From Deltaproteobacteria bacterium (GTDB taxonomy: Bacteria > Myxococcota_A > Polyangia > Polyangiales > Houyiibacteriaceae), in the NCBI GenBank assembly GCA_019313915.1, contig JAFDAJ010000002.1:31098-95097 (forward strand): a DNA stretch of 64,000 bases. The letters run 5' to 3'. Under the pieces are notes generated by a model. The model was not told where the DNA came from, ran no database searches, and worked only from the letters and a program-made list of their open reading frames with translations. Shown piece after piece: positions 2,403 through 17,672 of the stretch (position 1 is the first letter of the stretch; each line of letters opens with the position of its first letter). Made by a program: the position numbers and the translations under genes.

Positions 2403-3347
2403 ATGATGTCTCCGGGCCTCTTGCGGTATCTGGTGGGCCGCCTCGTGCGGGCATTGCTGACCGTCGTCGGCTTGGTGACGATCGTGTTCTTGCTCGTGCG
2501 CCTGATCCCGGGTGACCCCGTGGAGGCGATCCTCGGAGACCAGGCAAGCCCCGAAGAAAAGGCCGAGTTGCGGCGCGCGCTCAACCTCGACCGACCGGTC
2601 GGGGAGCAGTACCTGTCCTTCCTCGGGGACATGGCGGACGGCAGCATGGGAACGTCGTTCCGGCAGCCCGATCGATCGGTGTGGTCCATGGCGCGCGAAG
2701 TGCTGCCACACACAATCGTCCTTGCTCTCGCCGCTTTGTTCGTCGCGTGGTTCGTCGCGATTCCACTCGGCGCTATCGCAGCCGCCAATGCGGGCAGGGG
2801 CTGGGATAAAGTTGCATCGACGGTGGCCGTGGCAGGATTGGCGATCCCGAACATCTGGCTTGGACCTCTGTTGATTCTCGCGTTCGGCGTGAAGCTTCGG
2901 TGGCTACCATTGCCCGGAGACGACCTCGGCGGCCCCGAAGCATTGATCCTTCCCGCGATCACGATTGGAACCGCGCTCGCCGCGATTCTGACCCGGCAGA
3001 CCCGCGCGGCGATGATCGAGGTGCTCGCCCAACAATACATCACCGCCGCGCGTGCTCGAGGGGTTCCGTCGATCCCGCTGCTCCTGCGCCACGCGCTTCG
3101 AAACGCGCTGCTGCCGGTGATCACGATCGGCGCTGCGCAGCTGGGCGCCCTTCTCTCTGGCACGGTGGTCACTGAGAAGATCTTCGAGCGGCCTGGGCTC
3201 GGGACGCTGTTTCTCGACGCTTTCTTCGCTCGTGACATCCCGGTGGTTCAGGGCTGCGTGCTCATCATCGCGGTGATCTACGTCGTCGTGAACCTCGCGG
3301 TGGACTTGGCGTACGGGGTGATCGACCCGAGGGTGAGGCTGTCGTGA
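2403..3347 (+). CDS. ABC transporter permease, DppB/OppB/NikB type
   Basis: 314 aa polytopic protein. The N-terminus LLRYLVGRLVRALLTVVGLVTIVFLLVRLIPGDP and the C-terminus DLAYGVIDPRVRL are typical of peptide/nickel family permeases. Confidence 0.85.
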   Translation: MMSPGLLRYLVGRLVRALLTVVGLVTIVFLLVRLIPGDPVEAILGDQASPEEKAELRRALNLDRPVGEQYLSFLGDMADGSMGTSFRQPDRSVWSMAREVLPHTIVLALAALFVAWFVAIPLGAIAAANAGRGWDKVASTVAVAGLAIPNIWLGPLLILAFGVKLRWLPLPGDDLGGPEALILPAITIGTALAAILTRQTRAAMIEVLAQQYITAARARGVPSIPLLLRHALRNALLPVITIGAAQLGALLSGTVVTEKIFERPGLGTLFLDAFFARDIPVVQGCVLIIAVIYVVVNLAVDLAYGVIDPRVRLS

Positions 3348-4162
3348 CGAGGATTCGCACGCGCCTTCGAAAGACGCCGATCGGTTTGGCGATCGTGATC
3401 GGCTTCTTCGTGCTTGGGCTCATCGGTCCGTGGATCGCGCCCTACGACCCACTCATGATCGACCTCTTGCACGAGTATGAGCCGCCTTCATGGACGCACT
3501 TGCTCGGAACGGGGGACAACGGGATCGACATTCTGAGCGCCTTGCTCCATGGCGCTCGGCTCGCGGCGATCGTCGGAATCGTCGTCGTCGGGGTGTCCGT
3601 CGTATTTGGCACGCTGCTCGGCACGTGGGCCGGCTACGCGGGGCGGCTCACGGACCACGCGGTCACCGGGGTCGCCGACCTGGTGCAGGCCTTTCCAGCA
3701 ATCGTGCTGAACATCGCGGTTCTTGCCCTGGTCGCTCGACCAGGTCTCATGCACTTGATCCTCGCCCTCGCGGTCAACGGATGGGTGCTGTACGCGCGCC
3801 TAGCGCGCGCCGAAACACTGGCACTGCGAGAGCGCGAGTTCGTCGAGGCAGCGCGCGCGCTCGGCGTGCCCACGCATGAAGTCCTACGCCGCCACGTGAT
3901 TCCCAATCTGCTCGGGCCGCTCGTCATTCAGGCAACCACCGGACTGGGTGTGGTGATCCTAGCGGAATCAACGTTGTCGTTCCTCGGCCTCGGCCCCGGA
4001 AAAGCCGTGTCCTGGGGCGCTCTTCTCGATCAGGGCACGAGCGTGCTGTTGCGCTTTCCGCACGTCGCATTGTTCTCGGGCGGCGCGATCGCGTTGACCG
4101 TGCTGGGCTTCAATCTGACGGGCGACTGGTTGCGCGACCGCCTCGATCCGCGCCTCCGATAG
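3344..4162 (+). CDS. ABC transporter permease, DppC/OppC/NikC type
   Basis: 272 aa; start overlaps the upstream stop by 4 nt. Shows WTHLLGTGDNGIDILSALLHGARLA and the C-terminal LTGDWLRDRLDPRL typical of the second permease of peptide/nickel ABC systems. Confidence 0.85.
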   Translation: MTRIRTRLRKTPIGLAIVIGFFVLGLIGPWIAPYDPLMIDLLHEYEPPSWTHLLGTGDNGIDILSALLHGARLAAIVGIVVVGVSVVFGTLLGTWAGYAGRLTDHAVTGVADLVQAFPAIVLNIAVLALVARPGLMHLILALAVNGWVLYARLARAETLALREREFVEAARALGVPTHEVLRRHVIPNLLGPLVIQATTGLGVVILAESTLSFLGLGPGKAVSWGALLDQGTSVLLRFPHVALFSGGAIALTVLGFNLTGDWLRDRLDPRLR

Positions 4163-4164
4163 CC

Positions 4165-5064
4165 ATGCCCGAGCTTCCCGATATCGAGCTTTACCGGCAC
4201 GCGCTCCGATCGCGTGTGGTCGGCAAGGTGCTCGAACGCGTGCGACTTGCGTCGCCATTCGTCCTCAGAAGCGTAGACCCGCCGATTGGCGCCGTAGAAG
4301 GGAAACGAGTGCTCGACGTGCGCCGGCTGGGCAAACGGATCGTGCTCGTCCTCGAAGACGACCTGTACGTGGTACTGCATCTGATGATCGCCGGGCGACT
4401 TCGCTGGAAGTCGCCAGGGCACAAGATGCCTGGCCGAATGGGCCTTGGGGCATTCGACTTCGCCAGCGGAACGCTATTGTTGACCGAGGCGAGCAAGAAG
4501 AAGCGCGCCGCCCTGCACGTATGCCGCGGACAGAACGCCCTACTCGAGCACGACCCTGGGGGAATCGAGCCACTGGAAGTCGACTGCGCCGGCTTTCGAA
4601 ACGCGCTGACCGAACGGAACCACACCGTGAAACGAGCCCTGACCGATCCAAGGATCGTCAGCGGGATCGGAAACGCGTATTCCGACGAGATCCTTCTGCG
4701 GGCAAAGCTCTCTCCGCTGATCTGGACACAGCGGCTGACCGGCGAACAGATCGGGCTCCTGTATGACGCGACGCGGAACGTACTGTCGGAATGGGTGGCG
4801 CGATTGGCAGAGCAACACGGCGATGAGTTTCCGGAACAGGTGACCGCGTTTCGCCCGGAGATGGCCGCGCACGGCAAGTACGGCGAACCTTGCCCGGCAT
4901 GTGGCGATCCAATCCAACGAATCGTCTTCGCAGATCGGGAAACCAACTATTGCGCGACGTGCCAAACTGGCGGGAAACTTCTCGCCGATCGTGCGCTTTC
5001 CAGGTTGCTCAAGGGGGATTGGCCACGTTCCCTCGAAGAGCTCGAGTCCCTGCGCCGAAGCTAA
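4165..5064 (+). CDS. Fpg/Nei family DNA glycosylase/AP lyase
   Basis: 299 aa. N-terminal MPELPDIE (catalytic Pro2/Glu3), a central H2TH-like region, and a C-terminal zinc finger CPACGDPIQ...YCATCQTGG. Confidence 0.85.
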   Translation: MPELPDIELYRHALRSRVVGKVLERVRLASPFVLRSVDPPIGAVEGKRVLDVRRLGKRIVLVLEDDLYVVLHLMIAGRLRWKSPGHKMPGRMGLGAFDFASGTLLLTEASKKKRAALHVCRGQNALLEHDPGGIEPLEVDCAGFRNALTERNHTVKRALTDPRIVSGIGNAYSDEILLRAKLSPLIWTQRLTGEQIGLLYDATRNVLSEWVARLAEQHGDEFPEQVTAFRPEMAAHGKYGEPCPACGDPIQRIVFADRETNYCATCQTGGKLLADRALSRLLKGDWPRSLEELESLRRS

Positions 5065-5137: not shown

Positions 5138-7789
5138 ATGCGTTTTTCCATTCGCCGAGAGGATCGCAGGAACCTCGCCGTGGGCTTCGTCGGCTTGCTG
5201 GCGATCATGACTGCCCATTCGGTGATGGAGACCGCGCGCGACACGTTATTCCTGACGAGCCTGCCGGCGACGCATCTGCCACGCGCCTATCTCGCGATCG
5301 CCCTTCTCGCGATCCTGGAGCTCGAGGTCCACGAACGAGTGCTCCGGCAGATACGCGACCGCAGGACGCTCTTGGCAGCCTCGCTCCTCTTTGGCTCCCT
5401 CGTCACACTGGGCTTCTGGGCTCTGCTCGATGATCTCGGCGCGTGGGCGCCGTTCGGCTTCTATGTCTGGACAGGTCTCCTGATCACGGTTGTCCTCATC
5501 GAGTTCTGGCTGTTGCTGGACGATGCGGTGACCGTCACGCAGGCGAAACGCATCTTTCCCGCAATTGCCGCAGGCGGGGTGATCGGCGCGATGTTGGGGT
5601 CGTTGCTCGCCGAGGGCTTGCTGCGAGTGGCTTCCCCCATCGAGCTCGTGTTCGCGGCCGCAATCATTTTGACGCTCACGTCGGCGACTCCGTTTCTATG
5701 GAAGATGCCGCGCGACGCGTCAGCGGATCACCCAGTGTCCGAGCCCGGGCGTTCGCTCGGCTGGCTTCTCCGCGATAGTTATCTTTCGCGCGTTCTGACG
5801 CTGGTCTTGATGGGAACGATCGCGCTCACAATCGTGGATTTCGTATTCAAGAGCACGGTCGCAGACCACATCCCCGTGGAGGGCCTCGGCGCATTCTTCG
5901 CGCGCTTCTATCTCGGTCTCAACTCGGTAGCCTTGCTGGTCCAGATCGTTGGCGCCGGGTGGCTCCTGCGCGCATTTGGCGCACACCGGAGCTCTGCCCT
6001 ACTGCCGGTACTGATCTTCGGCGGCGCGATGGGCCTTGCCCTTGGGCCAATTCTGCCGTTTGCCGTCGCGCTCAAGGCAGTCGACGGGAGCTTGCGCCAC
6101 ACCTTGTACCGTAGCTCGGTAGAGGTGTTGTATCTGCCGCTCGACAGCCGTCGGCGCGAACGGGCGAAGGGCATCATCGAGGTGTTCGGGCACCGCGTCG
6201 GACAGGCGGTTGCGTCGCTGCTGATTATCGTGGCGGTCGGTGTGGGCCTAACGACGCAGCACCTGGGCGTGATCCTGCTGTTCTTGGTTGCGGCGTGGGT
6301 CATGGCGATCATGTCGACGCGGCATCAATACGTCGACGAGTTTCGCGCACGACTCCGGCAGGGCGTCATCGATACCCAACTCGAGCTAGAGCAGCTGGAC
6401 CGCCACTCCCTCGACGTTCTGCTCAATGCGTTGAACAGCGATCAGGATCCGGAAGTGCTCGCCGCAATCGACATCTTCGATCGGCACGGAAGGGCCGACA
6501 TGATCCCAGTGCTGGTGCTCTATCACCCCTCAACCGAAGTCCGCAGCCGTGCGCTCGAGGCCTTTGCCGAAGCGAGCGATCGTCGCTTCGTCCCGGTGGC
6601 TCGACGCATGCTCTCGGATGACGATCCCGACGTCCGTGCCGCCGCGCTTCGGGCGCTAACGGCGGTCGTCCCAAGCCGGAAGCTTCTGGAAGAGAAGCTC
6701 GATCTCGAAGCTTCGATCGTTCGGGCCACGGCATTGGTGGGGCTCCTATCGTTGAACCACGAGACTGGAAATGGGGGCGGCGTGTCGGCTTCGAAGCTAG
6801 ACGAGTGGACGGGCTCAGCCAGCGCGCGAACCCAATCCTCCCTCGCGCGCGCGATTCGGCATGAAGGCGGGCCGGTCTTTCACGAAACATTGATCAAACT
6901 CATCGAGACCGCCGACGACTCGGTGCGGCTCGAGACGCTGCGAGCCATGGAAGCAAGCCCCGACGCGCGCTACTTGCCGCGCCTGCTGCCCCTCTTGGCA
7001 AGCTCGGACCTGCGCGCTGCGGCACGTAAGGCCGTGGTCGCGATTGGCTCTGAGGCGCTGCTCGCCCTTGACGACGCGCTTGCGGACCCATCGACGCCTC
7101 GCAAAGTGCGGCGGCGCATTCCTCACACGATCATCTTGTTCGAATCGCAGGAAGCTGCCGACATTCTGCTCCAGCATCTGGAGCGGGAGCGCGAAGGTGG
7201 CGTGCGGCTCAAGATCTCGCGGGCACTCGGTCGCTTGCAAGCGACTCAGCCGTCGCTGGTCCTCGACGATACGCTCTTGCAGGAACAGCTTCGGTCGAGC
7301 TTGCTGCGTGTCGTGCAGCTTCTTCAGTGGCGCGCGGCAATTGAGAGCAACGGTACGCCCGAGACCACGGACGCCGAGCTGCTACGCGTGGCGCTTCAAG
7401 ACAAAGAGCGAGCAGCCCTGGAGCGCGCGTTCGGGCTGATGGGTCTCAGGCATCCCGAGGAAAATTTCACGCTGGTTTGGCGGGGCGTGACGAGTGACAA
7501 CCCGCGGATGCAAGCTGCGGGGCATGAGGTGTTGGAGGCGGCATTGCCTGGTTCCTTCCGTGAAGCCGTGCTGGCGATCATCGACGACGGAGAACCACCG
7601 GCACGACGTGCACGCGTGGCTGCCGCATCGCTCGGAGCAACCGTACGACAGATGTCACACGAAGAGGCGGTCACGGAGATGATGCAAGACCGGAGCGAGG
7701 TCGTGCGAGAGATCGCGGCTCACCACACGAGGGAGCTCGACCAGACAGCGGCGCAGGACGCGGCGCAGGAGGTGCCGAGACTTGTCTGA
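5138..7789 (+). CDS. Polytopic membrane carrier (TLC/ADP-ATP-carrier-like, MFS-like) fused to a C-terminal HEAT-repeat domain
   Basis: 883 aa. The first ~430 aa are hydrophobic multi-helix; the N-terminus RNLAVGFVGLLAIMTAHSVMETARDTLFL resembles COG3202-type carriers. The last ~450 aa are HEAT-like repeats (DPEVLAAIDIFDRHG, STEVRSRALEAF, DPDVRAAALRAL, DDSVRLETLRAM). Family call by eye. Confidence 0.6.
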   Translation: MRFSIRREDRRNLAVGFVGLLAIMTAHSVMETARDTLFLTSLPATHLPRAYLAIALLAILELEVHERVLRQIRDRRTLLAASLLFGSLVTLGFWALLDDLGAWAPFGFYVWTGLLITVVLIEFWLLLDDAVTVTQAKRIFPAIAAGGVIGAMLGSLLAEGLLRVASPIELVFAAAIILTLTSATPFLWKMPRDASADHPVSEPGRSLGWLLRDSYLSRVLTLVLMGTIALTIVDFVFKSTVADHIPVEGLGAFFARFYLGLNSVALLVQIVGAGWLLRAFGAHRSSALLPVLIFGGAMGLALGPILPFAVALKAVDGSLRHTLYRSSVEVLYLPLDSRRRERAKGIIEVFGHRVGQAVASLLIIVAVGVGLTTQHLGVILLFLVAAWVMAIMSTRHQYVDEFRARLRQGVIDTQLELEQLDRHSLDVLLNALNSDQDPEVLAAIDIFDRHGRADMIPVLVLYHPSTEVRSRALEAFAEASDRRFVPVARRMLSDDDPDVRAAALRALTAVVPSRKLLEEKLDLEASIVRATALVGLLSLNHETGNGGGVSASKLDEWTGSASARTQSSLARAIRHEGGPVFHETLIKLIETADDSVRLETLRAMEASPDARYLPRLLPLLASSDLRAAARKAVVAIGSEALLALDDALADPSTPRKVRRRIPHTIILFESQEAADILLQHLEREREGGVRLKISRALGRLQATQPSLVLDDTLLQEQLRSSLLRVVQLLQWRAAIESNGTPETTDAELLRVALQDKERAALERAFGLMGLRHPEENFTLVWRGVTSDNPRMQAAGHEVLEAALPGSFREAVLAIIDDGEPPARRARVAAASLGATVRQMSHEEAVTEMMQDRSEVVREIAAHHTRELDQTAAQDAAQEVPRLV

Positions 7790-8717
7790 GAAAGCACCGA
7801 AACCCTCTCAAATGGACCGATTTCAGCGCTTCTTGTTCCTGCGGACGATGCCGGCGCTCGCTGAGGTGCCGCCGGAAGTCTCCCAGGTCATCGCGGCGAA
7901 CACACGCGAGCGCTTCTTTGCGGAGGGGGAATACCTCTACCGAAGCGGCGTCCCCGCGCTCGAGATTCAATACGTGGTGAGCGGTGAGTGCGAGATCGTT
8001 CGCAACGGAAGAGCGGTGCGACGCTTGGGCGCGCGCAGCGTGGTCGGTGGAGTGAGCGCGCTCGCAGGTGAAGAGCTAGGTTACGACTGCATCGCACTCG
8101 AAGACATGGTTACACTCGCGATCGCCGTCGAAGATTCGCAAGAGATTTTCGAGGACCATTTCGTGCTACTCAAGCGCGTGCTCCGAGGAACCAGCCGCGA
8201 GGTGCTCGAGTCACGACGCAAGCTCGGACAAAGCGCCGGCTTTGGTCCGGTGGCCAAGCCGTTTGCTTTTCCCGATCGACCTTTCGATCTCGTCGAGCGA
8301 ATGGCATTCCTCCGAAAGACCCTTTCCTTTGGCGACAGCGAGATCGACGCAATCGCCGACCTCGCGCGTGACGTTCAAGAGGTCCACCTTCCCAAAGGCG
8401 AAGTCCTCTGGAACGTCGGCGATCGAAGCACGTACTTCCTGCTCCCGCTCCGCGGCGTCGTGGACTGCCAAGCCACCGACCCAGATCAACACTTCCAGCT
8501 CGGCCCAAGCGACTCCGTAGGCGCCATCGATGCCATGGCGGACGAGCGGCGCTGGTTCCGAGCCGAAGTCCTCGAAGACCTAGTCGCCTTCCGCATCGAC
8601 CAGGAGTCCCTCCTCGAGCTCCTCGAAGACCACTTCGCCATGGCCATGTCTCTCCTAAAAAGCATGGCCGCCGGCATCCTCCACCTATACGACCACGGAC
8701 ACTCTCCACCATCCTGA
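7782..8717 (+). CDS. Tandem cyclic-nucleotide-binding-domain-like protein without an output domain
   Basis: 311 aa; TTG start overlaps the upstream stop by 8 nt. Two cNMP-like modules (FLFLRTMPALAEVPPEV...GEYLYRSG; FLRKTLSFGDSEIDAIADLAR...GEVLWNVGD). The canonical FGE / R[ST]A phosphate-binding cassette is not obvious. Confidence 0.65.
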   Translation: MSEKAPKPSQMDRFQRFLFLRTMPALAEVPPEVSQVIAANTRERFFAEGEYLYRSGVPALEIQYVVSGECEIVRNGRAVRRLGARSVVGGVSALAGEELGYDCIALEDMVTLAIAVEDSQEIFEDHFVLLKRVLRGTSREVLESRRKLGQSAGFGPVAKPFAFPDRPFDLVERMAFLRKTLSFGDSEIDAIADLARDVQEVHLPKGEVLWNVGDRSTYFLLPLRGVVDCQATDPDQHFQLGPSDSVGAIDAMADERRWFRAEVLEDLVAFRIDQESLLELLEDHFAMAMSLLKSMAAGILHLYDHGHSPPS

Positions 8718-8753
8718 CCAGTGCCAGTGCCAGTGCCAGTGCCAGTGCCAGCG
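8718..8753. repeat. Hexanucleotide microsatellite (CCAGTG)x5 plus one imperfect unit (CCAGCG)
   Basis: Read directly: ccagtg ccagtg ccagtg ccagtg ccagtg ccagcg. It starts 1 nt after the TGA (8715-8717) of the cNMP-domain gene. Confidence 0.95.
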
Positions 8754-8859
8754 TGACATCTGATCGGAGCATTTCCAGCACTATGGCGATTTCATCGCTT
8801 CGATTTTTATTTTAATTTCCCTTTATTTTCAGTCTGTTAGGGAGGTGGAGAGTGTCCCC

Positions 8860-8887
8860 TTGTAACTGATTATTTGTTCAGTATACT
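8860..8887 (+). promoter_or_regulatory. Putative sigma70-type promoter with an embedded LexA-like (SOS) operator upstream of imuA
   Basis: TTGTAA (8860-8865), 16 nt, TATACT (8882-8887). The spacer is the palindrome CTGAttatttgtTCAG (8866-8881). It matches 14/17 of the CTRHAMRYBYGTTCAGS LexA box I recall for Myxococcus. It lies in the only AT-rich gap here, directly before the SOS mutasome operon. Confidence 0.5.
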
Positions 8888-8897
8888 GGGTGGTCCC

Positions 8898-9530
8898 ATG
8901 GGTGTTGGGACTGTCATTGAGATTGAGGAGCAGCGAGGTGGGGGGGAGGCTTTACCGCTTTCGGAGTTGTTGCCTCGGGGGCGCTTGGTTGAGGTGTCGG
9001 GAAAGCATGCTTGTGCGCGGACGACGACGGCTGTGTCGTGTGTGATCCGGGCGCAGGCGTGTGGTGAGCTCGTTGCTTGGGTGCAGCCCAGAGACGGCGC
9101 GTTGTTTCCTCCTGACCTCGATGCGGCGGGGGTCGATCTCGATTCGTTCATCGCGATTCAGGTACCGCGTCATGCAGGTCCGTTCGCGCTGGTTCGCGCC
9201 GCCGAGTGGCTTGCCCGTTCCGGCGCATTCGGGTTGACGGTCATCGACCTCACCGACGCCCTGCCGCCAGGTTCTTCGGTGAACTGGCAAGGCCGTCTTC
9301 AGGGTCTGTTGCGGCAATACGACGGTCGCATTCTCTTGCTCACTTCGAGCGCGTACGAAGATCCTTCTTCCGGTCCGTTGGTAGGCTTGCGTATCGAGCC
9401 CCGGCGCGGCGCTCTTCATGCTGATCGCTTCGAAGTTCACACGCGTGTTCTCAAAGACAAAATCGGCATCGCGATCGAGCTTTCACCATGGAAGCCTATC
9501 GCTCCAGCGGGGCTGCTAGGCGCATCATGA
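8898..9530 (+). CDS. imuA: ImuA (RecA/SulA-fold SOS mutagenesis protein)
   Basis: ORF 8874..9530, but 8874 lies inside the putative operator, so ATG 8898 is preferred. Contains ...RLVEVSGKHACARTTTAVSCVIRAQACGELVAWV.... First gene of the canonical imuA-imuB-dnaE2 order. Its stop overlaps the imuB ATG (ATGA). Confidence 0.75.
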   Translation: MGVGTVIEIEEQRGGGEALPLSELLPRGRLVEVSGKHACARTTTAVSCVIRAQACGELVAWVQPRDGALFPPDLDAAGVDLDSFIAIQVPRHAGPFALVRAAEWLARSGAFGLTVIDLTDALPPGSSVNWQGRLQGLLRQYDGRILLLTSSAYEDPSSGPLVGLRIEPRRGALHADRFEVHTRVLKDKIGIAIELSPWKPIAPAGLLGAS

Positions 9531-11035
9531 AGCGGGTGAGTTGCATTCTTTTGCCGATGCTTCCGTTGCAAATTCTGTTGCGCAAGAAGCCGCACTGGAA
9601 CGGCGTTCCCATTGCCGTCGTCGATGACGAAGGTCCCAATGGCCGCATCACGCATCTCAATACGCTCGCAAAAAAGAGCCGGCTCCGCATCGGCATGCGT
9701 CAGACCGTCGCGCGTGATCTTCTGCCAAACCTACACACTGCCGTCGTGTCACCCGAAGATGCCTCGGAAGTCAGCCGGGAGCTGGTCACTTCACTTCAAA
9801 CCTTCTCACCCCGGGTCGAAGCAGTCGATTACGCTGGCGCGTTCCACGTCGACCCCGAAGGCCTTCGGCGCCTCTACGGTGGTTACCACAGCTGGGCGAC
9901 GTCTATTCACCGGTATTTGCGGGCTCGTCACTGGCGAAACTCGGTGACTGTCGGCTTTCATCGCCATCGAGCGCTTGCGGTCGCGATGACGCACAGCGGG
10001 GTCACCATCCTGAAGAGCAACGACGAAGAGCGTGAACGATCAAACAAGACGTCCCTTCGTGAGTTCGATTTGCCCGGCGATCTTTGCGAAAGCTTGGGAG
10101 CATTGGGCATCGAAACATTGGGCGACTTTCTCGCCTTACCTACTGGCGAGCTTCACAGCCGTTTTGGCGCCAAGGCAAGCGCGCTCCACGACTCGTTTGC
10201 CGACGACATGCAACTCCCAATTCAGCCGCATGCCTTCGACGAGCCAGCGCGCATCTCGTTCCAGGTAGACCCGCCCGACGAAGACCAAAACCGCTTGCTC
10301 TTCGGGATCAAGGGCGCTCTGCACTCGTTGCTGCATCAAGTCCGGGCGCGCGGAGAAGCCATTCAATCTCTCGAACTTTCACTTCATTTGGAGCGCGCGC
10401 CTCTTCACCAAGAACACATCGAAACCGCATCACCGACGTTGGATTTGATGTTGCTGCTCGAGCTCATTCGTCTTCGTTTGGTTGGTCTTGTTGGTCTTGT
10501 TGGTCTGGGCGAGATGCGCTCGCAAGGCGCGGTCGAAGAAGTGGAGCTTCTTGCCAACACGGTGCGCGCACGCGCAGAACAGGTTGCGCTCCCTGGCCAT
10601 CAACCGCGTCACGACATGCGCGGTGCGCATCGAGCGCTCGACCGAATCCGCGCTGCATACGGCGAACACTCGGTAACCAGGGCTCGCGTGCGCGAGGCGC
10701 ATTTGCCGGAAGCTTCCTTCCGCTGGGAGCCAATCCAACATGCCCGGCTCGTCGAGCAACGGGCATCGCCTCCGATTTCTTCCATGATTAGAAGAGTTTA
10801 TGCCCGTCCGAAGCCTCTTCCTCTTCGCAAGCCGAAGGAGCCCGAGGCTGGCCCCTCGCTCGCTAAGAACCACGCGATCGAGCACATGTACGGGCCGTAC
10901 CGCGTGAGTGGTGGTTGGTGGAAACGCCTCGTCGAACGTGACTACTACTACGCTGAAACCGATCACGGTGACTTGCTCTGGCTCTTCTACGACCGCCCCC
11001 GGAAGCGGTGGTTCTTGCACGGGGTGCTCGATTGA
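9527..11035 (+). CDS. imuB: ImuB (Y-family DNA polymerase-like accessory protein)
   Basis: In-frame part of ORF 9488..11035; ATG 9527 overlaps the imuA stop. The N-terminus MKRVSCILLPMLPLQILLRKKPHWNGVPIAVVD is typical of the Y-family/ImuB fold. Its stop abuts the dnaE2 ATG. Confidence 0.8.
   Translation: MKRVSCILLPMLPLQILLRKKPHWNGVPIAVVDDEGPNGRITHLNTLAKKSRLRIGMRQTVARDLLPNLHTAVVSPEDASEVSRELVTSLQTFSPRVEAVDYAGAFHVDPEGLRRLYGGYHSWATSIHRYLRARHWRNSVTVGFHRHRALAVAMTHSGVTILKSNDEERERSNKTSLREFDLPGDLCESLGALGIETLGDFLALPTGELHSRFGAKASALHDSFADDMQLPIQPHAFDEPARISFQVDPPDEDQNRLLFGIKGALHSLLHQVRARGEAIQSLELSLHLERAPLHQEHIETASPTLDLMLLLELIRLRLVGLVGLVGLGEMRSQGAVEEVELLANTVRARAEQVALPGHQPRHDMRGAHRALDRIRAAYGEHSVTRARVREAHLPEASFRWEPIQHARLVEQRASPPISSMIRRVYARPKPLPLRKPKEPEAGPSLAKNHAIEHMYGPYRVSGGWWKRLVERDYYYAETDHGDLLWLFYDRPRKRWFLHGVLD
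10481..10507 (+). repeat. In-frame 9-bp tandem repeat (GTTGGTCTT)x3 inside imuB
   Basis: gttggtctt gttggtctt gttggtctg, encoding LVG-LVG-LVG (protein ...RLRLVGLVGLVGLGE...). Confidence 0.9.
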
Positions 11036-14000
11036 ATGGGCGCTTACGTTCCGTTGTGGGTCAAAAGCAATCACAGTTTTCTGGAAGGAGCTTCCTTTCC
11101 CGAAGAGCTCGTCGAGCGTGCACACGTCCTTGGTCTTCCCGCCGTTGCCATTACAGATCGTAATGGGGTTTACGGATTGGTGCGCGCGCACATGCGAGCC
11201 AAGGAGCTCGGCATCCGCGTCGTGACCGGTGCACAACTCGCGGTCGACGTCGAAGGCGATGCGCATCACGTCATTGCACTTGCCAAGACTCGACGCGGAT
11301 ACGCCGATCTGTGCAGAGCGTTGTCACTTGGGCACGCTCGATGCGAGAAAGGCGTTTCGCTCGTTCACACAGGAGACCTCGAACAGGCACGCGACGTATT
11401 CTTTCTTTGTCCGACACCTGCGGCATTGCGCGCGTTGCACGCGAGTCATGGGCCTTCGTCATTATTCGCCCTTTGCGCGCGTCATCTGGTCGACCGCGAG
11501 AAGCCGTGTGAACGGGCCTTGCGGTCGGTTGCAAGAGAGCTCGACGTGCAGACGGTAGGCGCAAACGAAGTCCTTTATCACGACAGGAATCGGCGCCCGC
11601 TCCAAGACGTTTTATCCTGTATTCGCGGGGGGAAAGTTCTCTCGGAGGCGGGCCATACAATCTGCGCAAACGCGGAGCACGACCTCAAACCCGCCGACGA
11701 GCTCGATCGCCTCTTTGCAGACGACCCCGCATGTCTTCGTCGCTCACTCGACATCGCCGAGCAGTGTACGTTCAGCCTCGACGACCTCCATTACCGGTAT
11801 CCAGAGGAACATCTACCCTCCGGGCGAAGTGAGCAAGGGTGGCTACGCGATCTCACGTTTAGCGGCGCTCGCGCGCGTTACCAAGGCAAGGTGCCGTCCA
11901 ACGTTCGCACGCAACTCGAACGCGAGCTTCAGATCATTCGCAAGCTCGCCTACGGCGGCTACTTCCTCACGATGTATGAGATCGTCCAGTACTGCCGGGA
12001 CCAAAGTATTTTGTGTCAGGGCCGCGGTAGCGCTGCTAACAGCGCGGTGTGTTTCTGTTTGGGCATCACAGCCATCGATCCCGTGCGAATGGATTTGTTG
12101 TTCGAACGTTTCTTGAGCGTCGAACGCGCGGAGCCCCCTGACATTGATCTCGACATCGAACACGATCGTCGAGAAGAAGTCATACAGCACGTCTACGAAA
12201 AGTACGGGCGGCGACATGCGGCGATGGTCGCGAACATCATTCGTTACCGCATCCGATCTGCAGTACGCGACGTCGGCAAAGTACTCGGCTTGTCCCGAAC
12301 GGATCTGGAAACAGCCACGCGATTACTCAGACATCGTGACGATGTCCTCAACCCCGAGCTCCTCCGAGAGGCCGGCCTCGAACAGGACGCGCCCGCAACC
12401 CATCACCTTTGCTCTCTAGCCTCTCAAGTGCTGGATTTTCCTCGTCATTTATCGATTCACCCGGGTGGCTTCTTGCTTGGTCAACGTCCCGTCGACGAGA
12501 TCGTTCCAATCGAGCCGGCGACGATGGAAGGGCGCACGGTCATCCAATGGGACAAATACGATGTAGACAACCTCGCGTTGTTCAAAGTCGATTTATTGGG
12601 CCTCGGAGCGCTCACCTGCATTCACCATGCGTTTGACCTGCTGCGGGAGCACAAAGGACAGTCGCTGGAGATCGCAACCGTTCCAGCAGAGGACAAAGCA
12701 ACCTACGACATGGTGTCGAAAGGGGACACGGTGGGCGTCTTCCAAATCGAAAGCCGCGCACAGATGGCCATGCTGCCGAGGCTTCGACCGCGCACGTTCT
12801 ACGACTTGGTGATCGAAGTGGCGATCGTGCGCCCGGGCCCGATTCAAGGCGACATGGTGCACCCCTACTTGCGACGGCGGAAGGGCACCGACGAGATCGT
12901 CTATCCTCACCCCAAGCTCGAGCGCATCCTGAACAAGACGCTGGGGGTTCCGATCTTTCAAGAGCAGGTCATGAAGCTTGCAGTCGAAGCTGCCGGATAC
13001 ACACCGGGTGAAGCCGATCAGCTACGGCGTGACATGGCAGCGTGGCGCAGGTCCGGACAAATCGAAAAACACCGAACACGCATGATCCCGCGCATGCTCG
13101 CCGAAGGCATCCCCGAAGAATTTGCCGAACGCGTGTTCTCACAAATCCGCGGTTTCGGTGAGTACGGCTTCCCGGAAAGTCACGCAGCCTCCTTTGCGTT
13201 GCTGGCGTACGTCACCGCATGGCTCCGATGTCACCACCACGAAGTATTCACCTGCGCAATCCTGAACGCCCAACCGATGGGGTTCTACACCCCAGCCACG
13301 CTAGTCGAAGACGCCAAGCGCCACGGCGTCGAGGTCCTCCCCATCGACATCAACAAGAGCCAATGGGACTGCACCCTGGAAGTCATCACTGACACTGGCA
13401 CTGACACTGTTACCGGAATACGGATGGGGCTTCGATACGTGAAGGGGCTCGGAGTCGTCGAGCGGGAGCGCCTGGAACCGGGCGAGCCACCATACCCGAA
13501 CCTCGCGACCTTCGTTCGCCAGACACGGCTCAACAAGAAGGCTCTGCACGCACTGGCCGAGGCTGGTGCATTCGAATGCTTTGGGCTCAACCGGCGTGAC
13601 GCGATCTGGCAGGTGCGCAGCCTGTCGCGCTTTGCGCAGGATTCGTTGCCGCTCGAACCTGCATCGAGTCAGACCTCGTTCGCATCGTTGGCGAGCGACG
13701 ACCAAGTGCTCTGGGATTACCGCTCGAGTCATCACAGCACTCGCGGCCACCCCATGCGAGGCCTTCGCCATGCGTTGCGTTCACGAGGCATCTTCGAAGC
13801 GACCCGCATTCACAACTGCACGCACGGAGACGCGATCGAGTACGTGGGCATGGTGATCTGCCGTCAGCGTCCAGGCACCGCGTCTGGCGTTACTTTCTTC
13901 ACGCTCGAGGATGAAACCGGCTTCGTCAATGTCGTCGTCTGGAAGCAGGTGTTCGACCGCCACGCCGCACTCGCCAAGACCGCGGCATTGATCGGCGTGA

Positions 14001-14110
14001 CGGGCGAGATTCAAAAAGCCGACGGCGTCATTCACCTGATCGCCAAGTCGCTCTGGGCGCCGGACGTCGCCCTCGCAGACCAAACCCACCGTTCACGCGA
14101 CTTTCACTGA
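11036..14110 (+). CDS. dnaE2: Error-prone DNA polymerase III alpha subunit DnaE2
   Basis: 1024 aa. PHP N-terminus (PLWVKSNHSFLEGASFPEELV), pol III alpha core (GRGSAANSAVCFCLGIT, PDIDLDIEHDRREEV) and an OB-fold C-terminus. Length and position after imuAB indicate DnaE2 rather than the replicative DnaE. Confidence 0.92.
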   Translation: MGAYVPLWVKSNHSFLEGASFPEELVERAHVLGLPAVAITDRNGVYGLVRAHMRAKELGIRVVTGAQLAVDVEGDAHHVIALAKTRRGYADLCRALSLGHARCEKGVSLVHTGDLEQARDVFFLCPTPAALRALHASHGPSSLFALCARHLVDREKPCERALRSVARELDVQTVGANEVLYHDRNRRPLQDVLSCIRGGKVLSEAGHTICANAEHDLKPADELDRLFADDPACLRRSLDIAEQCTFSLDDLHYRYPEEHLPSGRSEQGWLRDLTFSGARARYQGKVPSNVRTQLERELQIIRKLAYGGYFLTMYEIVQYCRDQSILCQGRGSAANSAVCFCLGITAIDPVRMDLLFERFLSVERAEPPDIDLDIEHDRREEVIQHVYEKYGRRHAAMVANIIRYRIRSAVRDVGKVLGLSRTDLETATRLLRHRDDVLNPELLREAGLEQDAPATHHLCSLASQVLDFPRHLSIHPGGFLLGQRPVDEIVPIEPATMEGRTVIQWDKYDVDNLALFKVDLLGLGALTCIHHAFDLLREHKGQSLEIATVPAEDKATYDMVSKGDTVGVFQIESRAQMAMLPRLRPRTFYDLVIEVAIVRPGPIQGDMVHPYLRRRKGTDEIVYPHPKLERILNKTLGVPIFQEQVMKLAVEAAGYTPGEADQLRRDMAAWRRSGQIEKHRTRMIPRMLAEGIPEEFAERVFSQIRGFGEYGFPESHAASFALLAYVTAWLRCHHHEVFTCAILNAQPMGFYTPATLVEDAKRHGVEVLPIDINKSQWDCTLEVITDTGTDTVTGIRMGLRYVKGLGVVERERLEPGEPPYPNLATFVRQTRLNKKALHALAEAGAFECFGLNRRDAIWQVRSLSRFAQDSLPLEPASSQTSFASLASDDQVLWDYRSSHHSTRGHPMRGLRHALRSRGIFEATRIHNCTHGDAIEYVGMVICRQRPGTASGVTFFTLEDETGFVNVVVWKQVFDRHAALAKTAALIGVTGEIQKADGVIHLIAKSLWAPDVALADQTHRSRDFH
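13387..13410 (+). repeat. Hexanucleotide repeat (CACTGN)x4 inside dnaE2
   Basis: cactga cactgg cactga cactgt, encoding ..TDTGTDTV... The unit is the reverse complement of the CCAGTG microsatellite at 8718-8753. Confidence 0.9.
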
Positions 14111-14566: not shown

Positions 14567-15070
14567 CTACTCGAGCGGCAACTCAGGCTCGTCGCGGCGT
14601 GGCTGCAGATTTTCGCGCTCGATGGTTCGTACGCATGCGTTCCATCTCAAGATCGCGTCATCGACGCCGGCCGGCTTGAGCGCGTCTGCCTGCTCATAGT
14701 GCTGCATGGCCTCGTGAAGGCCTTCATACGCGAAGGTGCGCTCCATCCCGCCGTGCTGCAGATGGGCGCGGCCTTGGCGCTCCGCCACGAGCCCGGCGTA
14801 ATACGCACGCTCGTAGTCCCCGGGAAGCTTGGCGAGGTGTTCTTTCGCACGACGGACTCCATGGGAGCCTCCGCCCTGCTGAAACTGATCGGTGAGCGAC
14901 AGGATCAGCGTGATGCGCGCGGGTCCGTTTCCGGGGTCGATTGCAAGGATGTCGAGACAAATGCTTTCGGCTTGCTCAGGGTCATTGAGCAGGCGGTAGT
15001 GCTCAGCCCGCTCGACGGCGCGCCCGATGGCGTCGGCGGAAATGCGTTTGAGAGCGAAGCGTTCCGTCAT
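14567..15070 (-). CDS. Conserved-looking hypothetical protein translationally coupled to sdhB
   Basis: 167 aa, soluble and helical (RAVERAEHYRLLNDPEQAESICLDILAIDPGNGPARITLILSLTDQF). Its ATG overlaps the sdhB stop by 4 nt. No family name recognised. Confidence 0.6.
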   Translation of the reverse strand: MTERFALKRISADAIGRAVERAEHYRLLNDPEQAESICLDILAIDPGNGPARITLILSLTDQFQQGGGSHGVRRAKEHLAKLPGDYERAYYAGLVAERQGRAHLQHGGMERTFAYEGLHEAMQHYEQADALKPAGVDDAILRWNACVRTIERENLQPRRDEPELPLE

Positions 15071-15846
15071 CCTGACTGCTCCTCCGTACGTGTCTTCGTT
15101 CGCACCCTACGCCCTGCGAAGAGCCGCGCCAAGCGTGCAAGTGGATCGTAGTAACGATCCACGACTCGCTCCTTGAGAGGAATGATCCCGTTATCAGTGA
15201 TGTTGATGTGCTCCGGACAGGTGTCCGTGCAGCACTTCGTGATGTTGCACATCCCCGAGCCGTATTCCTTCTTGATCTCGGGGATGCGGTCGTCGTCGTC
15301 CAGCGGGTGCATCTCCAAGCTAGCGAGGCGAACCATGAAGCGCGGGCCGACGAACGCATCCTTGCGGCCTCGGTCGCGCACGACGTGACACACATCTTGG
15401 CAGAGGAAGCATTCGATGCACTTTCGGAATTCCTGCACGCGGTCGACGTCCTGCTGGTACATCCGATGCTCGCCATCCCGGCCGCGCGGCTTGGGCTTGA
15501 ACGGCGCAATGCGCTTGTTTTGCTCGTAGTTCCAGGAGACGTCGCAGGTGAGGTCTTTGATGACCGGGAACGCCTTGAGAGGCTGCACCGTGATCACCTC
15601 GTCCGGGCCGAAGGTATTCATCCGAGTCATGCAGGCGAGACTCGGGCGCCCGTTGATCTCCATGCTGCACGAACCGCACTTGCCGGCTTTGCAGTTCCAG
15701 CGGATCGCCAGATCGTTGGCTTGGAGGGCCTGAATGCGATGCAACACATCGAGGACGACCATGCCTTCATCGACCTCCGCGTCGTACTGGTGGAACTCGC
15801 CGCCTGCCGAGTCGCCACGCCAAATCTTGAACGTCCGTGTGCTCAT
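15067..15846 (-). CDS. sdhB: Succinate dehydrogenase/fumarate reductase iron-sulfur subunit
   Basis: 259 aa. 2Fe-2S motif CKAGKCGSCSMEINGRPSLAC, plus CIECFLCQDVC and CCTDTCP cluster motifs. Confidence 0.93.
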   Translation of the reverse strand: MSTRTFKIWRGDSAGGEFHQYDAEVDEGMVVLDVLHRIQALQANDLAIRWNCKAGKCGSCSMEINGRPSLACMTRMNTFGPDEVITVQPLKAFPVIKDLTCDVSWNYEQNKRIAPFKPKPRGRDGEHRMYQQDVDRVQEFRKCIECFLCQDVCHVVRDRGRKDAFVGPRFMVRLASLEMHPLDDDDRIPEIKKEYGSGMCNITKCCTDTCPEHINITDNGIIPLKERVVDRYYDPLARLARLFAGRRVRTKTRTEEQSG

Positions 15847-17672
15847 CCTACCCGGCCTCCCTCGAGATCTTCGAGCGTCGCGTTGGCGATGGCCGCAAGC
15901 TCCTCAGGTGGGTCGGCGCGCTCGACCTTCTGCACTTGCATCTCACCACCGGGCCCCTTCTTCGTGACGACGTTGAAGCGCGCGCACTCGTCGCGCTCGC
16001 CCTCGAAATCGAGACGCGTGTGCGCGCCGCGGCTTTCCTCGCGGATGAACGCCGCGCGCGCCACGGCCTCGCCGACGATCAGCAGTGACTTCACCGACAG
16101 CGCCTCGTGCCATCCGGGGTTGTACTGGCTCGTCCCCGGAGCCTTCAGGTTCTGCGCCCGGACCTTCAATGCCTTGAGCTGCTCGACGGCGATCTGGAGC
16201 TCTTCTCCGGTCCTGACGATGCCCACGTTGGTGCTCATCACCTCTTGGAGCGCCTCATGCATCAGATAGGGATTCTCCCCCGTTTCCCGGTTCAAAATGC
16301 CTGTCGCCTCCCTGAAGGCAGCGGTGATTTGCTCGTCGTCAGGCCTCGGAGTCGAGGTCGAGTCCGACAGGTAGGCGGCGACGCCAACCCCGGCAAGCCG
16401 TCCGAAAACGATGAGGTCGGAAAGCGAGTTACCGCCGAGGCGGTTCGCCCCATGCAAGCCCGCTGCGCACTCGCCACATGCAAAAAGTCCTGGGACGTTC
16501 GTTTGTTGCGTGTCCGCATCAACACGAATGCCGCCCATGAAGTAGTGAAGCGTCGGACCTACCTCCATCGGGGTCGTCGTGATGTCGACTTCTGCAAGCT
16601 CTTTGAACTGATGATACATCGACGGCAGCTTGCGCTTGATCGATTCAGCGGGCCGGCGTGACGCGATGTCGAGGAACGCGCCACCATGAGGAGAGCCCCG
16701 CCCCGCTTGCACCTCGGCGCGAATCGCACGCGCGACGACATCACGTGTGAGGAGCTCCGGTGGGCGTCTCGCGCTTGGGTCCTCGGGCCACTTGTCAGCC
16801 TCGAGAATCGTGTCGGCCGTCTCCGGAGCAAAGCGCTTCGGGATGTAGTTGAACATGAAGCGCTCGCCCTTGTTGTTGAGCAAGATGCCGCCATCGCCGC
16901 GAACGCCTTCGGTGACCAACGTCCCGCGAACCGAAGGGGGCCAGACCATGCCGGTCGGGTGGAACTGGGTGAACTCGAGGTCCATCAGCTCCGCGCCCGC
17001 TTCGTATGCCAACGCCGCACCGTCGCCTGTGTACTCCCAGGAGTTGCTGGTGACGTTCCAGGCCTTGCCGCCTCCTCCGGTTGCCATGATCACAGCAGAG
17101 GTCCGAAATAGGACAAATCTGCCGGTTTCACGCCAATAACCTGCCACCCCTGCGATCCGCCCTCCATCGAGGAGCAGCCTGAGCGCCGTGCACTCCATGT
17201 GAAAATGGATGCCCTGATGGACCCCATGATCCTGAAGCGTTCGGATGAGCTCGAGGCCGGTACGGTCGCCGACGTGCGCCAACCGGGGGTAGCGGTGACC
17301 ACCAAAGTTGCGCTGATTGATCAACCCGTCGGGGGTTCGGTCGAACACCGCGCCCCACTCCTCGAGCTCGCGCACGCGGTCGGGAGCCTGCTTGGCGTGG
17401 AGCTCCGCCATGCGCCATTGATTCAAGAACTTCCCGCCCCGCATCGTGTCGCGAAAGTGGATCTTCCAGTTGTCGCGCCGGTCCACGTTCCCGAGGGACG
17501 CGGCCATGCCGCCCTCCGCCATCACCGTGTGCGCCTTACCCAGAAGGCTCTTGGAGATGACGCCGGTGTTGAGCCCACGCGCGCTGCATTCGATGGCGGC
17601 GCGAAGACCGGCCCCGCCTGCACCAATGACGAGCACGTCGTGCTCGAAAGTTTGTATCTCGCTGACGTTCAT
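15843..17672 (-). CDS. sdhA: Succinate dehydrogenase/fumarate reductase flavoprotein subunit
   Basis: 609 aa. FAD fold VIGAGGAGLRAA, HTVMAEGG (covalent-FAD His region), FHPTG, GANRLGGNSL. Confidence 0.95.
   Translation of the reverse strand: MNVSEIQTFEHDVLVIGAGGAGLRAAIECSARGLNTGVISKSLLGKAHTVMAEGGMAASLGNVDRRDNWKIHFRDTMRGGKFLNQWRMAELHAKQAPDRVRELEEWGAVFDRTPDGLINQRNFGGHRYPRLAHVGDRTGLELIRTLQDHGVHQGIHFHMECTALRLLLDGGRIAGVAGYWRETGRFVLFRTSAVIMATGGGGKAWNVTSNSWEYTGDGAALAYEAGAELMDLEFTQFHPTGMVWPPSVRGTLVTEGVRGDGGILLNNKGERFMFNYIPKRFAPETADTILEADKWPEDPSARRPPELLTRDVVARAIRAEVQAGRGSPHGGAFLDIASRRPAESIKRKLPSMYHQFKELAEVDITTTPMEVGPTLHYFMGGIRVDADTQQTNVPGLFACGECAAGLHGANRLGGNSLSDLIVFGRLAGVGVAAYLSDSTSTPRPDDEQITAAFREATGILNRETGENPYLMHEALQEVMSTNVGIVRTGEELQIAVEQLKALKVRAQNLKAPGTSQYNPGWHEALSVKSLLIVGEAVARAAFIREESRGAHTRLDFEGERDECARFNVVTKKGPGGEMQVQKVERADPPEELAAIANATLEDLEGGRVG

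Follow-up and report, generated by a model that had tools for sequence, protein, structure and literature searches.

On the forward strand of a 64,000-nt stretch of contig JAFDAJ010000002.1 (assembly GCA_019313915.1, positions 31,098 to 95,097; hereafter the window), which derives from a Deltaproteobacteria bacterium of the Polyangiales, two overlapping genes code for a putative membrane carrier fused to a HEAT-repeat solenoid and for a soluble protein built of two cyclic-nucleotide-binding (CNB) folds. We favour, with moderate confidence, the view that the two products form a two-subunit membrane module in which the tandem-CNB protein docks on the middle HEAT repeats of the carrier protein and passes the occupancy of its pocket on to the carrier. 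An initial annotation of the window, made from its sequence alone, had proposed that both genes belong to a single module. This proposal is now supported by the strict adjacency of the two genes among relatives sharing 33-92% identity and lying in differing genomic contexts, and by the recurrent loss of the second gene together with an internal segment of the first.

Organization of the gene pair

Gene 1 (5138..7789, + strand) is an open reading frame (ORF) starting with ATG and codes for an 883-aa protein consisting of a TLC/NTT-family transporter followed by a HEAT-like solenoid, as judged from Pfam matches and an AlphaFold2 (AF2) model. Gene 2 (7782..8717, + strand) is an ORF starting with TTG and codes for a 311-aa tandem cNMP-binding-fold protein, as judged from Pfam, AF2 and Foldseek. 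Both ORFs lie where the initial annotation had placed them and overlap by 8 nt. A protein identical to the gene 1 product is annotated, according to its database record, in a Deltaproteobacteria/Myxococcota metagenome-assembled genome (MAG), and close relatives of the 883-aa protein are labelled Myxococcota, Polyangiales or Sandaracinaceae.

The TTG at position 7782 sits 5 nt before the TGA of gene 1, and a Shine-Dalgarno-like AGGAGGT located within the 3′ end of gene 1 (7767..7773, + strand) ends 8 nt upstream of this TTG. A TTG or GTG occupies exactly the same position, 5 nt before the first base of the gene 1 stop codon, in all 12 orthologous loci compared (57-92% protein identity), and in each of them a GGAGG-like purine motif lies 8-9 nt upstream of the overlapping start. 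Moreover, the distance from the stop codon to a conserved methionine in gene 2 (motif MDxFQRF) is 22, 13 or 25 nt in the 12 loci, the differences being multiples of 3. Because the position of the start, the GGAGG-like motif and the multiple-of-3 spacing are all conserved, we accept TTG as the start codon of gene 2; these comparisons support the 8-nt overlap and bear out the translational coupling predicted for the pair. The ATG at 7812, located 22 nt past the gene 1 stop, was considered as an alternative start of gene 2; it has no such motif upstream, and the comparative data favour the TTG. Directly after the stop codon of gene 2, a CCAGTG hexanucleotide is repeated in tandem in about 5.5 copies (window 8718-8751).

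Adjacency of the two genes and their recurrent co-loss

Eight relatives of the 883-aa protein were compared (66, 57, 47, 38, 36, 34, 34 and 33% identity). A gene coding for a 298- to 340-aa protein lies directly downstream in all eight, with a spacing of −8 to +25 nt. The cNMP_binding domain is recorded for seven of these eight downstream genes, while that of the 36%-identity relative has no Pfam entry. The flanking genes are unrelated in most of the eight loci; the 66%-identity relative keeps the whole fpg-imuA-imuB-dnaE2 context found in the window and the 47%-identity relative keeps the upstream permease genes and fpg. A scan of metagenomes with the family motif [LMV]ETARD[AT][LM]F yielded 505 confirmed relatives; 80 were retained, and their loci were searched with a hidden Markov model of the partner family. 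The partner gene follows on the same strand in 62 of 62 complete full-length genes having at least 700 nt of downstream sequence. Conservation of the two genes as neighbours in related genomes, which the initial annotation had named as a check on its proposal, was therefore observed for every complete full-length relative sampled.

In eight genome loci and five metagenome loci, two sets that share at least one contig, the gene found in the fpg-X-imuA-imuB synteny codes for a shorter transporter variant of 570-660 aa, and the partner gene is missing from all of them. When 12 short variants were each aligned to the window protein, the middle of the solenoid proved to be absent from them, the deletions corresponding to residues 416-688, 442-705, 408-692, 411-714 or 513-708. 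Their common core, residues 513-688 (6674..7201, + strand), comprises HEAT repeats that are absent from every partner-less short variant and are therefore a candidate docking site for the partner. The short variants have at least four different deletion boundaries and, in a neighbour-joining tree of the transporter domain built without support values, are scattered over several positions. All retain the membrane domain as well as the final 130-160 solenoid residues, and these parts therefore have a function that does not depend on the partner. Co-loss of the middle HEAT repeats and of the partner gene requires two separate deletions, yet it has recurred, which is strong comparative evidence that the repeats and the partner work together.

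One further locus has a still shorter gene. In the closed MAG chromosome of Myxococcales bin5 (CP070713.1; positions 6001-7431 of locus L021), the ortholog codes for 476 aa, corresponding to the transporter domain alone, and is followed by different genes. Further truncation, rearrangement or an assembly artefact could each explain this organization.

A dedicated family of tandem CNB proteins with non-canonical cassettes

Pfam analysis of the 311-aa partner returned cNMP_binding (PF00027; 78.1 bits in two stretches) and no other domain. Its AF2 model (predicted local distance difference test [pLDDT] 89.9, predicted TM-score [pTM] 0.85) contains two CNB barrels with connecting helices only, and its best structural matches in Foldseek are the tandem CNB-A/B domains of PKG and of the PKA regulatory subunit (PKA-R; E ~1e-15). 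No helix-turn-helix or other DNA-binding or output domain was found by Pfam or NCBIfam or in the AF2 model. The partner had been described as a protein of two cNMP-binding-like barrels with no effector, a description that both Pfam and AF2 bear out.

The phosphate-binding cassettes were judged by alignment to PKA-R and Crp and by column statistics over partners from all contexts. The cassette equivalent of barrel A (residues 88-105, VGGVSALAGEELGYDCIA; 8043..8096, + strand) aligns as G89-G90...L99-G100-Y101, with neither the Glu nor the Arg. Over 87 partners, the cassette A of the family is V-G-G...L-G-Y-D, without the ribose-binding Glu in any sequence and with variable residues at the position of the phosphate-binding Arg. 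The cassette equivalent of barrel B (residues 246-262, VGAIDAMADERRWFRAE; 8517..8567, + strand) reads G247-A248...R257-W258-F259, in which Arg257 is retained at the canonical position, Glu is replaced by Ala and [ST]-A by Trp-Phe. The corresponding family cassette is V-G-[ASG]-x-[DE]-[AS]-x-A-x-x-[PR]-R-W-[FY]-x-A, which lacks the Glu at +1 and has Arg at the canonical +10 position in 81 of 83 partners, Trp in 76 and Phe or Tyr in 76. Neither barrel matches the canonical cassette G-E-[LIV]-A-L...P-R-[ST]-A, and the same pattern holds over the 87 partner sequences. The cassettes of the window protein are thus as degenerate as they had first seemed, with the nuance that barrel B keeps its Arg. 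The unusual cassettes and the motifs FEDHF, LEDHF and LDLVERM are kept down to partners of 22-29% identity; judged from these alignments, the partners form a dedicated family whose non-canonical cassettes are conserved family-wide. Since the pocket is conserved but non-canonical, the ligand is probably other than the canonical cAMP or cGMP, or there may possibly be none.

The partner has two consecutive CNB folds as do PKA-R and PKG, and in our model it would resemble them in being a ligand-controlled regulatory subunit that acts in trans. However, it shares only 11-16% identity with these proteins, the orientation of the barrels differs (whole-chain TM-score ~0.33), it has no inhibitor or dimerisation segment, its cassettes are non-canonical, and its target would be a transporter instead of a kinase. 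The ‘cAMP-independent’ PKA-R of trypanosomes (PDB 6flo, 6hyi and 6hyq), with tandem CNB folds and altered cassettes that bind ligands other than cAMP (inosine and guanosine in the entries), provides a precedent for re-purposed CNB pockets, although its cassette changes differ from those of the partner. In MloK1, the HCN and CNG channels and SLC9C1, a CNB-fold sensor fused in cis and having canonical cassettes binds cAMP or cGMP and controls membrane flux. In contrast, the putative sensor of the window would form a subunit by itself, paired with an MFS-type carrier that bears a HEAT platform.

The membrane domain and its relation to NTT transporters

The 883-aa protein matches Pfam TLC (PF03219; NTT family TC 2.A.12) over residues 206-398 with 48.6 bits against a cut-off of 21, as well as HEAT_2 (58.1 bits) and HEAT (33.1 bits), and profile searches also match its solenoid to alphaRep and PBS-HEAT designs. 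Hydropathy analysis detected about 11-12 hydrophobic segments in residues 12-394. The AF2 model (pLDDT 90.1, pTM 0.80, with 29 diverse homologs as input) displays long transmembrane (TM) helices up to about residue 411, a disordered linker at residues 413-419 and about 13 helical hairpins at residues 422-878. We thus divide the protein into a membrane domain of about 12 TM helices with an NTT-type fold of the major facilitator superfamily (MFS) (residues 1-411; 5138..6370, + strand), assigned from hydropathy, AF2, Foldseek and phmmer or profile matches, and a cytoplasmic HEAT-like α-solenoid (residues 422-878; 6401..7771, + strand), assigned from AF2, Pfam and profile matches. The five best Foldseek matches of the transporter model, 9j3m, 9j3n, 9j3l, 9j3j and 9j3o (TM-score 0.60-0.69, normalised to the target), are the Arabidopsis NTT1 and Chlamydia pneumoniae NTT1 structures released in 2025, and generic MFS carriers rank next. 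Pfam, hydropathy and AF2 thus confirm the fusion of a TLC-type carrier to HEAT-like repeats that had been read from the sequence. In contrast, the assignment of the TLC likeness to the N-terminus did not hold: sequence similarity to the NTT chains 9j3j and 9j3n spans residues 93-398 (phmmer and profile), the Pfam match lies within it, and the first three TM helices resemble NTTs at the level of the fold only. Residues H27, E31, R34, D35, K137, D234, K238, Q269, E329, R353 and Q356 are invariant in the family.

Canonical NTTs such as Arabidopsis NTT1 (AtNTT1) and Chlamydia Npt1/NTT1 (PDB 9j3j-9j3o) belong to the same Pfam family and provide the closest solved fold. They share with the window transporter the motifs A-K-[KR] after TM4, [ED]-x-x-x-K in TM7 and E-x-x-Y-[IL]-P-L in TM10. 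However, identity is only about 17%, the canonical proteins have neither HEAT tail nor partner, and their RDTKD motif is replaced by a family-invariant ETARD in the window family. To compare individual positions, AtNTT1 numbering was mapped through what we take to be the AtNTT1 sequence, which agrees with the PDB chain over the aligned region and carries K, E, E and K at the published positions with an offset of one. In AtNTT1, K155, E245, E385 and K527 are strongly conserved charges important for transport, and K527 has been linked to triphosphate transport (PMC4256464). Pairwise and profile alignments place Gly113 in the E245 column (family consensus W-[ST]-G), with no acidic residue at or beside this column. 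The E385 column corresponds to the family-invariant Asp234 in D-x-x-F-K, a conservative change. Depending on gap placement, the K527 column holds H352 (Q in the family) or the invariant Q356, never Lys; the invariant Arg353, 1-3 residues away, could substitute. As for K155, the first three TM helices could not be aligned by sequence, even with the family profile at maximum sensitivity. A sub-threshold alignment to C. pneumoniae NTT1 puts Tyr51 at this position, and Tyr51 is invariant in a 14-sequence alignment of transporter domains. Because the Glu245 of plastid NTT1 is absent, ATP/ADP exchange should not be assumed for the window transporter. The missing charges are suggestive only: the substrate range of NTTs is not predictable from sequence, divergent microsporidian NTTs exist, and those with three of these residues altered are nonetheless counted as nucleotide transporters (PMC4256464).

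These observations bear directly on the canonical interpretation of the pair, namely an ATP/ADP exchanger set by cAMP bound to the partner, which would tie nucleotide uptake to the energy state of the cell. Such a role was speculated upon by Major, Embley and Williams (2017, Genome Biol Evol, PMC5381601), who proposed that the genes are functionally linked, possibly as an operon and perhaps through cAMP. It would agree with the above-cut-off TLC match, with the ATP/ADP translocators being the closest solved structures and with the Arg retained at the canonical position of cassette B. Against it stand the family-wide absence of the G-E Glu from both cassettes, the lack of Arg in cassette A and the replacement of [ST]-A by W-[FY] in cassette B, as well as, suggestively, the changes in the E245 and K527 columns. 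Furthermore, the NCBIfam model TIGR00769 ‘NTP/NDP exchange transporter’ scores 55.3 bits, far below its cut-off of 387.2, and no other NCBIfam model matched. Altogether, we regard the canonical interpretation as rather improbable.

Published NTT-HEAT fusions and extent of the family

The arrangement itself is already known. NTT-HEAT fusions were described by Major et al. as a monophyletic and widespread bacterial clade, in which the fusion (HEAT domains PF13646 and PF02985) is followed a few nucleotides downstream by a gene coding for PF00027, the cyclic-nucleotide-binding domain (cNBD) (PMC5381601). NTT-HEAT-cNBD fusions in a single polypeptide were reported in cyanobacteria, deltaproteobacteria and oomycetes; the oomycete triple fusions carry a duplicated cNBD and group among fusions of Deltaproteobacteria, Bacilli and Marinimicrobia in one clade, where a Marinimicrobia sequence is closest to them with weak support (PMC5381601). 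Thirty-three deltaproteobacterial NTT sequences were sampled in that study (PMC5381601), from which we also take the phylum-level distribution of the pair and the natural triple fusions as Rosetta-stone evidence. Our own genome scan, with a single protein as query, reached Myxococcota MAGs only. The window pair has the same three modules in the same order, with a C-terminal HEAT fusion and a PF00027 gene immediately downstream. The 883-aa protein is a candidate member of the published clade: over its full length it aligns colinearly, with 33-47% identity, to hundreds of proteins about 900 aa long. No functional characterisation of an NTT-HEAT/cNBD pair was found in the literature searched, which also covered CbpB of Myxococcus xanthus. 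The initial statement that no characterised example was known therefore holds as regards function, but the arrangement had been published, and the pair is less novel than was assumed. The earlier work was phylogenetic only and did not report the features added here: the conserved overlapping start, the co-loss whose recurrence delimits the likely docking region, the non-canonical cassettes shared by the whole family and the missing NTT charges, Glu245 among them.

An exhaustive search of representative sequences returned 9,294 clusters at E ≤1e-3 and 1,639 clusters (50% identity) at E ≤1e-30. Most of the best 150 clusters are about 880-950 aa long and colinear over nearly the whole query at 33-54% identity, the rest being shorter or partial.

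A proposed two-subunit module with a trans-acting CNB sensor

In the module that we favour, the first subunit would be a secondary transporter of the TLC/NTT branch with an MFS fold and a cytoplasmic HEAT-like solenoid of about 13 hairpins. The second would be the soluble protein of two CNB folds, coupled translation keeping both products in step. The second subunit would dock on the middle HEAT repeats, roughly residues 420-700 with 513-688 as the core, and act in trans like a PKA-type regulatory subunit. A small cytoplasmic ligand would bind, most likely in barrel B with its Pro-Arg-Trp-Phe/Tyr cassette, and the resulting change in the solenoid-sensor complex would tune transport. We infer docking, ligand-dependent gating and the nature of ligand and substrate from the comparative observations above. 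To our knowledge, there is no characterised precedent for such a regulatory architecture among MFS-type transporters.

Several points weigh against this interpretation. Co-loss could reflect participation in one shared pathway without physical contact. The count of independent losses relies chiefly on how the deletion boundaries differ, as the neighbour-joining tree has no support values. The non-canonical cassettes could mean that the partner is a ligand-free, constitutive structural subunit. The interaction between the partner and the HEAT repeats is a prediction from sequence comparison. Finally, no triple NTT-HEAT-cNBD fusion was present among 118 matches to the partner profile, a weak negative that depends on the word index used.

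Alternatively, the MFS-like domain could be chiefly a membrane anchor or sensor, as in a scaffold or ‘transceptor’, with the HEAT platform and the partner recruiting other proteins toward a signalling or assembly output instead of regulated transport. HEAT solenoids are generic protein-binding platforms, and colinear conservation of the solenoid, which extends across some 450 residues and is seen in more than 1,600 representative clusters, exceeds what a simple regulatory tail would need. Some lineages also add a short TLC paralog, an Omp85-like gene, a PAP2 gene and a gene for a 530- to 600-aa protein beside the pair. However, polar and charged intramembrane residues typical of carriers (R34, D35, K137, D234, K238, Q269, E329, R353 and Q356) are invariant, and in the short variants the membrane domain stays intact although HEAT repeats and partner have gone, which argues that this domain has a function of its own. 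We consider such a role unlikely.

Neighbouring genes in the window and in other lineages

Upstream of the pair, the window contains genes for two Opp/Dpp-type ABC permeases (2403-3347 and 3344-4162) and an Fpg/Nei DNA glycosylase (4165-5064), an order that is kept in many related MAG loci, even in that of the 47%-identity relative (L029). Directly downstream lies the mutagenesis cassette imuA (8874/8898-9530), imuB (9488-11035) and dnaE2 (11036-14110), identified by the Pfam domains RecA-like, IMS and DNA_pol3_alpha. A scan revealed a terminator-like hairpin (8785-8799) with a T-rich tail 3′ of the pair (8785..8809, + strand), and a promoter-like TTGTAA-16-TATACT (8860-8887) precedes imuA. 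The latter overlaps the LexA-box-like CTGATTATTTGTTCAGT, a candidate operator at 8866-8882 that we take to resemble a Myxococcus-type LexA box. Because of the hairpin and of the separate promoter-like site before imuA, the pair is predicted to be its own transcription unit, outside the mutasome operon. For imuA, the ATG at 8898 is more likely the start than the listed TTG at 8874, since the latter falls inside the promoter-like site. Farther downstream on the − strand (15067-17672) are genes for the iron-sulfur and flavoprotein subunits of a succinate dehydrogenase/fumarate reductase, which are ordinary and unrelated to the pair.

The order fpg-pair-imuA-imuB-dnaE2, conserved across many Polyangiales-like MAG loci, could suggest that the pair serves the flanking DNA-repair genes, for example by importing nucleotides for damage-induced synthesis. 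Yet the flanks are entirely different in relatives of 33-57% identity that still hold the pair, the terminator-like and the promoter- and LexA-box-like sites part the pair from imuA, and the short variants dropped the partner with the repair genes unchanged. With flanks unconserved beyond the close clade and imuA having its own promoter-like site, we rejected this link as very improbable. Least credible of all is that the partner is a Crp/Fnr-type transcription factor regulating the neighbouring transporter gene, as names such as ‘Crp/Fnr family transcriptional regulator’ or ‘CRP-like cAMP-binding protein’ given to homologs by some sources would imply, given a protein in which only two CNB barrels and helices were found by Pfam, NCBIfam and AF2, which structurally comes closest to the tandem CNB regulatory subunits of PKG and PKA, and whose translational coupling and loss alongside a protein segment point to a partnership at the protein level.

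In lineages other than that of the window, a short TLC/MFS paralog (430-450 aa) occurs with the pair, often right after the partner gene; in L029 this paralog is 671 aa long and has a HEAT trace. PAP2 phosphatases, an Omp85-like protein and a 530- to 600-aa protein with no Pfam match also recur beside the pair, and L003 and L032 share the latter two proteins at 26-42% identity. The accompanying set lies at 11667-17860 in L003, 1088-4004 in L031, 1-3995 in L032, 7355-10353 in L033 and 8659-10674 in L029, and accompanying genes are found downstream of the partner in L086, L095, L098, L099, L104, L109, L110 and L113. None of the four (short TLC paralog, PAP2, Omp85-like or 530- to 600-aa protein) was found within the 64-kb window. 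This gene set may point to an envelope- or lipid-related role.

Implications for the NTT family

More tentatively, the pair could represent a widespread class of two-subunit ligand-gated transporters, amounting to thousands of clusters, in which a CNB subunit on a HEAT platform senses a metabolite other than cAMP or cGMP and the cargo is not ATP/ADP; in this broad form the proposal is possible but doubtful. NTT-type transporters are textbook markers of energy parasitism. Yet the largest branch detected in our searches is one of free-living bacteria; it numbers 1,639 clusters (50% identity, E ≤1e-30), bears a HEAT platform and is functionally uncharacterised. A defined mutant design for experiments is suggested by the short variants that occur naturally with neither the middle HEAT repeats nor the partner. 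Should the partner be a dedicated regulatory subunit reading a ligand other than a cyclic nucleotide, this would be a new mode of control of secondary transport and would call for caution with the labels ‘ATP:ADP antiporter’ and ‘cAMP-binding protein’ for these genes.

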